Positions 8,982-58,373 of a stretch of DNA of 64,000 nucleotides are shown in pieces. The stretch lies in sequence record OL362041.1, one strand, 5' to 3'. Under the pieces are notes generated by a model. That model ran no database searches. It was given only the letters and a program-made list of their open reading frames with translations, and had not been told where the DNA came from. How positions within the stretch are numbered: the first letter of the stretch is position 1; every line of letters begins with the position of its first letter. This DNA is from Escherichia phage vB_Eco_OMNI12. The translations under genes were made by a program, and so were the position numbers.

Positions 8982-9379
8982 TATACTCTATTACTGGAAG
9001 CCAGTTGTAGTTTTATCTGCTCAATATCATCAGGGTTATCGATGACTGAAAAGCGTATTTCTACTATCAAAGTATAATCATCATAAACCGGTATTACATT
9101 AACTGCTAATTTATCAATACGTGGCTCATAGTTTCTTACTGCGCTTTCGATATTACGCTCAACCGTGTCAGCAGTAAGAGGAGTCATATTCTCAAAAAGT
9201 TGGTCAGATAAATCGCATCCAAATTCAGGGTCAAACGGTCTTGAACCTTTTCTTGTTGTAATAATTCCTAAAAGACTATTTTTAATTGACCTTAATCCAA
9301 GTGATCTTGAAACGTCTTTGTTCCAATCCATTTTCATCTCTGGGTCAATATCAGAATAAAGCTTATTAATATTTGCCAT
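8981..9379 (-). CDS. gp25: Baseplate wedge protein gp25
   Basis: 132 aa, gp25/GPW family. Confidence 0.9.
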   Translation of the reverse strand: MANINKLYSDIDPEMKMDWNKDVSRSLGLRSIKNSLLGIITTRKGSRPFDPEFGCDLSDQLFENMTPLTADTVERNIESAVRNYEPRIDKLAVNVIPVYDDYTLIVEIRFSVIDNPDDIEQIKLQLASSNRV

Positions 9380-10005
9380 TACAATAGCTCAAAGAATTCT
9401 TTGAGTCCTCTTATTACATGAGCGTGAGTTTTTCCACACTCTGGACATTTAATTGGAACAGCCAAATAAACAGTAGGCTTTAAAAGCATATCTTTTATAG
9501 CTACAATATCTGACTCTGTGATGATAGAATATAAATCTTCTAGTTCCTTTTCATTTAAGTCTTCAACTGGAATGCTTTCCCCGTTAGCATGAATCGTTTC
9601 TATACATGATACTATCATGTGGGCTATATTTTTATCATCAAAAATTTTAGGGTATCGGAATTTAATTTTAATGTCACCCAGTGTATACCAAAGGTCTTCT
9701 GGTGCATCTATTTGTGTATGTAATAGATTTATATGGGTTGGTATTTCAGTTCCGCAGGTGCACTTCCAGGAGTTTTCGTGATTAACTTCTCCAAGAGAAT
9801 GCGCCCATAAATGAATCAACAATAGTTCTGATTCTTGGCGATTTAAATCTTTTGCATTTGTGCAGTCTTTGATTAGCTTTTTAACAATTACTTCTACAGA
9901 ACCATTATTTTTGGCAGTAATAAGTTCTAGATATTCTTTAAGAGTAAATGCGCGACAGTTGATTATTTTAGAACCAACTCTCACATCAAATTTGTATTCA
10001 TACAT
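9379..10005 (-). CDS. gp26: Baseplate hub protein gp26
   Basis: 208 aa, position between 25 and 51. Confidence 0.8.
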
Positions 10006-16297: not shown

Positions 16298-16328
16298 ATG
16301 GGGACCTTTCGGTCCCCATATTTTTATT
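16298..16328. terminator. Bidirectional terminator between gene 54 and the alt cluster
   Basis: TGGGGACC-TTTC-GGTCCCCA followed by TATTTTTATTT. Confidence 0.65.
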
Positions 16329-25627: not shown

Positions 25628-25658
25628 GAAAATAAAAAAGGACTCCCGAAGGAGTCCT
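25628..25658 (-). terminator. Rho-independent terminator
   Basis: AGGACTCC-TTCG-GGAGTCCT on the - strand followed by TTTTTTATTTT. Confidence 0.65.
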
Positions 25659-32625: not shown

Positions 32626-34213
<1,588 letters not shown>

Positions 34214-34220
34214 AATAAAA

Positions 34221-34236
34221 TGGGCCTTGCGGCCCA
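34221..34236 (-). promoter_or_regulatory. GNRA-tetraloop hairpin between the Shine-Dalgarno and the denA start codon
   Basis: - strand reads TAAGGAG-TGGGCC-GCAA-GGCCCA-TTTTATT-ATG. Confidence 0.5.
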
Positions 34237-34240
34237 CTCC

Positions 34241-35419
34241 TTAAAAGTATTTTTTAAAACTCATCATAACTTTATCATCAACATCATTATCAATCTGTGC
34301 AACAAGATAAGATGACAGTTCTACTTCTTGTGGCGCTGATTGAACATTATCAGAATTAAGATATTCACGAATCCAAGGATATGGATGTTTAACCGGAGCA
34401 TCGGTAATTGGGCATGGAAGACCACACTGTTTCATACGAGATACAGTTAAGTAATCAATAAAGCTCCACATGCTATTTGTATTTAATCCAGGAACATCGC
34501 CATCTTTAAATAAATGAACTGCCCAATCTTTTTCTTGGCGGTTAACTTCCATGAAAATATCAACTGCTTCTTGCTCGCACTCTTGAGCAATTTTAACCCA
34601 TTCATCGCCATCAGTACCAGATTGAAGTTGACGAATAATATATTGTGTACCTTTAAGATGAAGCTGCTCATCACGTGCAATGAACTTCATAATCTTGGCA
34701 TTACCTTCCATGATTTCCATGTTTTTATGGAAGTTAAAGGTACACGCAAAGGATACATAAAAACGAATAGCTTCTAATGCATTGATTACATGCAAACAGA
34801 GGTAAAGAGATTTCATTAGCTCACGCTTCCAATATGTCTCATGCTCAATAGCATCTTCAATAACGTCTTCGTCTGCATTAATTTCTTTTTGGTATTCGAT
34901 ATCAGCTTTAGCGTTTTCCCAATAACGAGTTTTAATCAGAACATCATCATAATAACGTCCAATGGATTCAGCACGTTTCATAATAGCTTCATCTAATACA
35001 ATCTCATCAAATACCTTTGACGGATCAGTATAAAGATTTCGCATGATATGAGTGTATGAACGACTGTGAATAGTTTCACTAAAAGTCCATGTAGCAACCC
35101 ATGTATCAAGGCTTGGGTCTGAAATTAACGACATAAGTACAGCAGATGGTGCACGACCCTGAATGCTATCCAAAAGTGATTGATACTTCAAGTTGTTAGT
35201 AAAAATATTTTGCTGATACTGAGGAAGCTTATTAAACTGTGCAGCATCCATCATTAAGTTTACTTCTTCCGGGCGCCAGAAAAATGATAAGGACTTTTCT
35301 GTAAGTTCTTCAAATACTCGATGCCGTTGAATATCATAACGCGCAATACCAAGACCTGAACCAAAAAACATAGGTTCTTTTAAAACATCAACTGGATTTG
35401 TATTAAAAACTGTGCTCAT
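34241..35419 (-). CDS. nrdB: Ribonucleotide reductase small subunit, uninterrupted
   Basis: 392 aa continuous ORF with ferritin-like di-iron core. Confidence 0.9.
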   Translation of the reverse strand: MSTVFNTNPVDVLKEPMFFGSGLGIARYDIQRHRVFEELTEKSLSFFWRPEEVNLMMDAAQFNKLPQYQQNIFTNNLKYQSLLDSIQGRAPSAVLMSLISDPSLDTWVATWTFSETIHSRSYTHIMRNLYTDPSKVFDEIVLDEAIMKRAESIGRYYDDVLIKTRYWENAKADIEYQKEINADEDVIEDAIEHETYWKRELMKSLYLCLHVINALEAIRFYVSFACTFNFHKNMEIMEGNAKIMKFIARDEQLHLKGTQYIIRQLQSGTDGDEWVKIAQECEQEAVDIFMEVNRQEKDWAVHLFKDGDVPGLNTNSMWSFIDYLTVSRMKQCGLPCPITDAPVKHPYPWIREYLNSDNVQSAPQEVELSSYLVAQIDNDVDDKVMMSFKKYF

Positions 35420-35470
35420 AAATTTTCCGCTTAGTTAATAGTTGGTGACTCGTCCGTGAGTCAAATTATA

Positions 35471-37735: not shown

Positions 37736-38052
37736 AAGTCCTCAACTTGAAAATCGTCTTTAAACAATCGGTTAACTATATGAGCTATTATATCACCATG
37801 ACACGGCTTTGGTTTACATGTGCATCCTAGCCTCATTCCACGTAAAGGCTCTAAATGTGCTTTAGTTATTTCTCCGGATTTAATTCGACGTATAAAATCT
37901 TTTTTGAATAATTCAATGGCAGCCTCCCGGCTGCCAGCATCTTTACCGACGTAATTTCCCCAAAATGTACCACGGTGAATATTAACATCAAAGTCGGATT
38001 TGTATTTATTCACTACCCGACATAGACGGCCCGCGCGGTGATAATTCGGCAT
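37726..38052 (-). CDS. Hypothetical protein
   Basis: 108 aa ORF. Confidence 0.5.
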
Positions 38053-41490: not shown

Positions 41491-41520
41491 GAAATAAAAA
41501 AGGGGACCTCTAGGGTCCCC
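41491..41520 (-). terminator. Rho-independent terminator after gene 32
   Basis: GGGGACC-CTAGA-GGTCCCC on the - strand followed by TTTTTTATTTC. Confidence 0.7.
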
Positions 41521-58340: not shown

Positions 58341-58368
58341 ATAAAAAAGGGAGAGCCGAGGCTCTCCC
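58341..58368 (-). terminator. Rho-independent terminator
   Basis: GGGAGAGC-CTCG-GCTCTCCC on the - strand followed by TTTTTTATTTC. Confidence 0.65.
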
Positions 58369-58373
58369 TAAAA

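Follow-up and report, generated by a model that had tools for sequence, protein, structure and literature searches.

A candidate split ribosome binding site for denA that spans a terminator-type hairpin behind nrdB in T4-like phages

The denA gene of Escherichia phage vB_Eco_OMNI12, which encodes endonuclease II (EndoII), appears to be translated from a split ribosome binding site (RBS) in which a hairpin of terminator type, located where nrdB ends, lies between the Shine-Dalgarno (SD) sequence and the start codon, possibly helped by or combined with reinitiation by ribosomes leaving nrdB. From the comparison of sequences described below, we put the probability of this reading at roughly 55%. 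The DNA analyzed, referred to as the window, is a 64,000-nucleotide stretch of record OL362041.1.

In the proposed mechanism, a stable tetraloop hairpin at the 3' end of nrdB would sit within the denA translation initiation region. Where transcription continues past it, the 30S subunit would pair with the UAAGGAG that overlaps the nrdB stop codon. We infer that the subunit then accommodates the hairpin in its folded state, looped out, which would leave about 7 nt between SD and AUG instead of 22 to 23 nt. The same hairpin and its U-tract would probably also act as a leaky intrinsic terminator, as a stabilizer of the 3' end of the nrdA-nrdB mRNA, or as both. As a result, denA, a nuclease gene whose product is needed in small amounts, would be expressed at a lower level than ribonucleotide reductase.

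The distant SD itself is not new. The 1986 record X04140 marks a distant AGGA as an RBS and an AAGG within the hairpin as a second possible RBS. The hairpin-bridged layout of denA and its conservation, in contrast, seem to be undescribed; a literature search, with some older T4 papers beyond its reach, returned no account of either.

Layout of the nrdB-denA junction

On the minus strand, positions 34243 to 34211 read TAA-GGAG-TGGGCC-GCAA-GGCCCA-TTTTATT-ATG (Table 1). These letters confirm the order given in the initial annotation, which was an SD overlapping the nrdB stop, a hairpin, TTTTATT, and the denA ATG, with 23 nt between the last G of AAGGAG and the A of ATG. The nrdB stop and the denA start are 27 nt apart, and rnlA is the next gene after denA. 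The annotation had also considered this SD to be the only one. There is indeed no SD 3' of the hairpin, but the AAGG sequestered inside the hairpin had been overlooked. The junction of T4 (NC_000866) is the same base for base, and over 901 bp the window, a Tequatrovirus sequence, shares 99.8% identity with phage Paracelsus.

Table 1. Features of the nrdB-denA junction, with positions counted from the first letter of the window
Feature	Position	Strand	Basis
nrdB (ribonucleotide reductase beta subunit), intron-less, 392 aa	34241..35419	-	ORF; nrdB label in matching phage records
nrdB TAA stop	34243-34241	-	
Shine-Dalgarno UAAGGAG, shares bases with nrdB stop	34237..34243	-	7 contiguous pairs to 16S 3' end, -7.8 kcal/mol
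Hairpin UGGGCC-GCAA-GGCCCA	34221..34236	-	folding; core -12.2 kcal/mol
Hairpin, 5' arm	34236-34231	-	
Hairpin, GNRA loop	34230-34227	-	
Hairpin, 3' arm	34226-34221	-	
U-rich spacer UUUUAUU from hairpin to AUG, terminator-type U-tract, without SD	34214..34220	-	
denA (endonuclease II, GIY-YIG), 136 aa from ATG 34213-34211	33803..34213	-	ORF
In-frame GTG in the 5' arm, abutting the SD; denA start in T4 RefSeq (144 aa)	34235..34237	-	
AAGG across loop and 3' arm; alternative RBS in 1986 record X04140	34225..34228	-	

The nrdB gene of the window is one continuous reading frame with neither a group I intron nor I-TevIII. With only 51 nt (35420-35470) between nrdA and nrdB, there is no mobE or nrdB.1, in contrast to T4.

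Folding and energetics of the hairpin

In a 39-nt context the hairpin folds with -16.4 kcal/mol (z = -3.9), and 1 of 200 shuffled sequences folds as well. The 6-bp core alone contributes -12.2 kcal/mol. A further 4.2 kcal/mol comes from weak G.U and A-U pairs between GGAG and UUUU, with which the minimum free energy (MFE) fold of the T4 junction lengthens the stem and partly pairs the SD. The in silico probability of an unpaired SD is low. Exposing the SD alone would cost about 4.6 kcal/mol, compared with the -7.8 kcal/mol gained when UAAGGAG pairs with the anti-SD. Melting everything from the SD through +13 would cost about 22 kcal/mol, and it is therefore not plausible that a 30S subunit melts the structure.

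Perfect hairpins of -11.6 kcal/mol or lower are found as 19 strand-instances in the window versus 0.5 on average across 20 dinucleotide shuffles. This excess, together with the covariation of the stem in relatives, places the denA hairpin well above chance. A search against Rfam returned no family at the gathering threshold, the best score being 24.7 bits for L20_leader, for which 58.7 are required. That sub-threshold match (E = 0.023) spans 34206-34332 on the minus strand, which includes the 3' end of nrdB and the hairpin, and it is regarded as chance.

Conservation and covariation among T4-like phages

Scanning IMG/VR twice by tblastn with EndoII yielded 49 loci. The comparison set consisted of 26 distinct nrdB-denA junction types from T4-like phages with denA 60 to 99% identical. 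A single layout is common to all loci in which nrdB directly precedes denA, with one exception (L029, described below). It consists of a stop codon (TAA, once TAG) overlapping UAAGG(A/G), a GC stem of 4 to 7 bp, 5 to 10 mostly U-rich nucleotides, and ATG. In each of the 26 junction types the SD overlaps the stop codon and precedes the hairpin on its 5' side, and in none of them is there an SD 3' of the hairpin. Loops are UUCG in most types and GCAA or GUAA in the T4 group, with UUAG, UUUG, and CUUGA also found. This variability points to a role for the hairpin that is structural rather than sequence specific.

RNAalifold, run on the junction alignment, returned exactly the same 6-bp core. Compensatory double changes are present at four of the six stem pairs. 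For example, one pair appears as G-C, C-G, or A-U and another as A-U, G-C, U-A, or C-G. The proportion of stem cells in the alignment that can pair is 93.5%, compared with 78.6% in shuffles and 63 to 69% in controls with the 3' partners shifted over by one column. In 26 cells both sides of the pair have changed, versus 7.9 +/- 2.3 in shuffles, and the observed level of covariation was reached in 0 of 500 shuffles. The lower helix formed by the SD and the U-tract is different. It can pair in 71% of cases, nearly all of the pairs are G.U or A-U, and there are no compensatory changes. Thus, the lower helix gives no sign of selection for sequestering the SD, and conserved sequestration by this part of the stem was rejected.

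Spacing was measured after aligning each SD to UAAGGAGG. The linear distance between SD and AUG in the 26 junction types is 20 to 26 nt (mode 22). With the hairpin looped out it becomes 6 to 9 nt (mode 7) in 25 of the 26. However, the linear distance, mostly 21 to 22 nt, is conserved about as tightly as the looped-out distance, and spacing therefore does not uniquely favor bridging. The distance from the nrdB stop to the ATG is 24 to 32 nt (mode 27).

The junction element, in its sequence, fold, covariation, SD-hairpin-AUG order, and geometry, is real, strongly conserved, and structurally constrained. As expected of a split RBS, the linear SD gap at denA is greater than about 15 nt, a stable hairpin lies wholly between SD and AUG, no other SD stands at canonical spacing, and the stem has been kept by compensatory change.

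The denA start codon

In the T4 RefSeq entry (NC_000866), denA occupies 137517-137951 and begins with a GTG inside the stem, giving 144 aa. X04140, most other records, and the crystallized protein (PDB 2WSH, in which a tag is followed by MKEIATEY) take the ATG and 136 aa. The GTG reading frame is present in the window, and if the GTG were the start the hairpin would be coding sequence and a split RBS would be unneeded. The comparative data make this scarcely credible. The first G of the GTG is shared with the SD, leaving a spacing of about 0. Any in-frame upstream start is found in just 6 of the 26 junction types, several types have in-frame stops instead, and the changes in the stem are compensatory, not codon preserving. 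In relatives, tblastn matches start from the first residue of EndoII, and every aligned sequence has the ATG. Because of these matches and this invariance, the usage in the other records and in 2WSH, and the lack of conservation of the GTG, we take the ATG to be the real denA start. The initial annotation had listed a denA start at another codon as an outcome that would count against its proposal. This was checked, and the GTG annotated in RefSeq was rejected. Judged from these alignments, that GTG is probably a mis-annotated start in the reference genome.

Four junction types have a start-like triplet (GTG or ATG) immediately after the SD, in frame and exactly eight codons before the denA ATG (those of the window/L007, L011, and L044). 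This may be chance, yet it recurs in separate lineages.

Comparison with known split sites

The initial annotation had stated that T4 uses split ribosome-binding sites at a few genes, and the literature supplies two, genes 25 and 38 (PMC3014915, PMC7297116). These were the only split sites named in this review literature, and denA went unmentioned. According to the same two sources, looping out the hairpin shortens the spacing from 22 to 5 nt at gene 38 and from 27 to 11 nt at gene 25. The gene 25 site was established by mutagenesis and probing (Nivinskas et al. 1999; Malys and Nivinskas 2009; both as reviewed in PMC3014915), whereas the denA split site is proposed from sequence comparison.

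Gene 25 is present in the window with its ATG at 9379 (minus strand), and its site reads AAGAGGA-CUCAAAG-AAUU-CUUUGAG-CUAUUGUA-AUG. The spacing is 27 nt when linear and 9 nt when looped out, and the hairpin has -7.5 kcal/mol. The site forms the gene 26/25 junction (9377-9412, minus strand), where the stop codon of gene 26 ends on the A of the gene 25 ATG. The two sites are alike in having over 20 nt between SD and AUG, a hairpin wholly within that interval, a workable looped-out spacing, and a position at the junction with an upstream cistron. At gene 25 of the window the order is SD, 1 nt, an 18-nt hairpin, 8 nt, and AUG, with GAGGA before the hairpin; at denA it is UAAGGAG, a 16-nt hairpin, 7 nt, and AUG. 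The hairpins differ. That of gene 25 is AU-rich, has 7 bp, and lies inside the gene 26 coding sequence, whereas that of denA, at -12.2 kcal/mol, is GC-rich with a hyperstable tetraloop, intergenic, and followed by a U-tract. The distribution differs as well. The gene 25 arrangement is restricted to close T-evens according to PMC3014915, whereas that of denA extends to phages whose EndoII is only 60 to 75% identical.

Gene 38 offers a close parallel in spacing (Gold 1988, as cited in PMC3014915 and PMC7297116), with 22 nt reduced to about 5 nt there and 22 to 23 nt reduced to 7 nt at denA. However, gene 38 was of no use as a positive control: downstream of gene 37 the window seems to have another gene, of T2 type, whose hairpin, SD, and ATG stand in the ordinary order. 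The order hairpin, SD (GGAG or GAGG), and ATG holds for all three of the other strong intergenic hairpins next to gene starts in the window. The split RBS of Escherichia coli thrS (Sacerdot et al., as discussed in PMC3936740) is also similar in that a folded hairpin is accommodated within the ribosome binding site, but there the hairpin stands between the SD and AUG on one side and a single-stranded standby region farther upstream on the other, instead of between SD and AUG.

Terminator-like properties

The U-tract has U at 6 of 7 positions in the window, and the corresponding tails of relatives average 4.5 U per 7. By comparison, 44 ordinary SD-ATG spacers from the window consist of 49% A and average 1.95 U per 7; six or more U occur in none of them. 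The denA hairpin has the same form as the terminator-type hairpins of the window (stem, tetraloop, and U-run), and a related GenBank record labels it a terminator. A simple consensus terminator scan did not flag it despite the GC stem and UUUUAUU, probably because the G.T extension of the stem consumes the T-run. At loci L033/34 and L040, the hairpin and the SD-hairpin-AUG order are kept without a U-tract. Termination is thus not universal, and the hairpin persists at loci that are unlikely to terminate transcription.

Like intergenic rho-independent terminators of T4, for example that of mobE (PMC2790892), the denA hairpin has a GC-rich 6-bp stem, a stable 4-nt loop, and a U-run that follows at once. 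Unlike them, it lies between an SD and a start codon, so that read-through RNA is translated across it. At mobE, where the U-tract of the terminator is likewise short, only 30 to 50% of transcripts are stopped (PMC2790892), which makes a leaky terminator at the denA hairpin plausible. No T4 transcript 3'-end map or Term-seq data set was found in the searchable literature, and a T4 omics study assigns denA and nrdB to temporal classes only, which say nothing about read-through. The initial annotation had suggested a terminator or attenuator after nrdB. The U-rich tail, the label in the related record, and a hairpin after nrdB in Citrobacter phage Ci1 lend this plausibility, and the silent terminator scan and the loci without a U-tract detract from it. 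We infer that some termination occurs here, and it is plausible from the sequence features that the hairpin and U-tract form a leaky intrinsic terminator.

Perfect GC-rich tetraloop hairpins, many of them with the stem, tetraloop, and U-run of classical terminators, are about 40-fold more frequent in the window than in shuffles (for example at 58348-58369, 16298-16319, 37917-37936, 2196-2217, 25639-25658, and 41502-41520). Several are bordered on either side by A-runs and U-runs in the manner of bidirectional terminators.

Divergent and outgroup junctions

At L029 (1490-1510; EndoII 73% identical) both the hairpin and the SD have been lost, and the TGA of nrdB overlaps the ATG of denA as ATGA. 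A close relative, L025, keeps the hairpin with the unusual 5-nt CUUGA loop. Overlaps of denA with a different upstream gene, also as ATGA and with no clear SD, were found in phages Aeh1 (L054, 1489) and Ci1 (L055, 1447). An overlap of stop and start codons was seen only in L029, Aeh1, and Ci1; at denA of the window the two are 27 nt apart. The use of ATGA without an SD by these hairpin-less or distant relatives suggests that coupling alone can suffice for denA, and EndoII may therefore often be made by termination-reinitiation. Compared with such ATGA-coupled cistrons, the junction in the window is similar in that the SD overlaps the upstream stop codon and dissimilar in that a stable hairpin lies in the interval between stop and start.

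Two outgroups have the order hairpin, SD, and start codon. In Krischvirus-like loci (L046/47; EndoII 51% identical), where the upstream gene is not nrdB, a stop codon is followed by a hairpin, a U-tract, GAGGAAAGGAUA, and AUG. In Ci1 (L055, 765-797) a GGGGC-GAAA-GCCCC hairpin after nrdB precedes an unrelated gene with its GAGG SD and ATG. The presence of this hairpin after nrdB in a phage that has denA elsewhere makes a hairpin at the nrdB 3' end seem older than the split arrangement.

EndoII-like reading frames that are 40 to 42% identical (L048 to L052, about 1501-1530), on contigs of up to about 150 kb, contain an in-frame TAG. They read TDV*LDQNG where T4 has TELELDDNG with a sense codon, and may belong to TAG-recoded phages or be pseudogenes.

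Alternative explanations

The hairpin might be only a terminator or stabilizer of nrdB mRNA, and most translation of denA might come from ribosomes that had finished nrdB at its UAA immediately before. Such ribosomes, held by the overlapping SD, would shift about 27 nt to the AUG, and independent 30S loading would be minor. We consider this account somewhat doubtful, but the initial proposal that the hairpin brings SD and start codon together has in it a live rival. The overlap of SD and stop codon in every junction type and the conserved linear distance from stop to ATG are what reinitiation would favor, a ribosome that terminates on nrdB would open the hairpin's 5' arm, the Ci1 hairpin follows nrdB whatever gene comes next, and the overlaps in L029, Aeh1, and Ci1 fit coupling directly. 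However, movement over 27 nt through a refolding hairpin of -12 kcal/mol is not obviously efficient. Furthermore, a good SD (5 to 7 pairs) at a looped-out spacing of 6 to 9 nt is the prediction of a split RBS, and the validated site of gene 25 is laid out in the same way. The order of SD and hairpin, the covariation, the looped-out spacing, and the gene 25-like geometry all stand on the side of the split RBS, and a split RBS and reinitiation coupling are not mutually exclusive.

The structure could instead be repressive, with the extended GGAG:UUUU stem hiding the SD in order to keep a toxic nuclease low and translation possible only once it has opened, perhaps from the internal AAGG (34228-34225) at 11-nt spacing. 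The MFE pairing worth 4.2 kcal/mol, the SD that is seldom unpaired in silico, and the marking of AAGG as a second RBS in X04140 are consistent with this. Nevertheless, we judge repression unlikely. The lower helix shows the weak, uncompensated pairing described above, and a purine-rich segment facing a U-rich one gives such pairing by composition. Opening the core would cost more than 12 kcal/mol. The AAGG is sequestered in the hairpin and missing from all relatives with UUCG loops, and it was rejected as an SD. A further alternative concerns RegB, an endoribonuclease that cleaves GGAG within the SDs of early T4 mRNAs (PMC2988021, PMC1702504) and might inactivate the denA SD early in infection. 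The RegB target is a single-stranded 11-nt GGAGRAYARAA, and structured GGAG sites are resistant (PMC1702504). The denA site, in contrast, reads GGAGUGGGCCG, does not match this consensus, and lies beside or within a stable stem, and most relatives have GGAA, GGAU, GGAC, or GGU in place of GGAG. We therefore discarded a RegB site at the denA SD as highly improbable.

Implications

Tentatively, the split RBS can be extended to a fuller picture in which one hairpin has two opposed jobs. By folding while it is being transcribed, it would end some nrdA-nrdB transcripts and yet, on read-through RNA, be required for denA translation by bridging SD to AUG, thereby setting a fixed low ratio of EndoII to ribonucleotide reductase. 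In the same picture, the site would be older and far more widespread in the Tevenvirinae than that of gene 25, and would have arisen by compaction of an ancestral junction with the order stop, hairpin, SD, and ATG, as in Ci1 and the Krischvirus-like loci. This combination is possible, but we hold it with less than even confidence.

On the practical side, the comparative data favor correcting denA in the T4 RefSeq from the GTG (144 aa) to the ATG (136 aa). Gene finders that demand an SD 5 to 10 nt upstream would mis-annotate starts of this kind or their ribosome binding sites.

The natural sites usually cited for the order SD, hairpin, AUG are only those of T4 genes 25 and 38, and denA would be the third. 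If the split RBS is correct, it would feature a hyperstable tetraloop, covariation across several genera, and a terminator-like double role. It would then provide a cleaner model both of the accommodation by the 30S subunit of folded RNA between an SD and a start codon and of the nesting of transcription and translation signals that phages achieve in very compact junctions.
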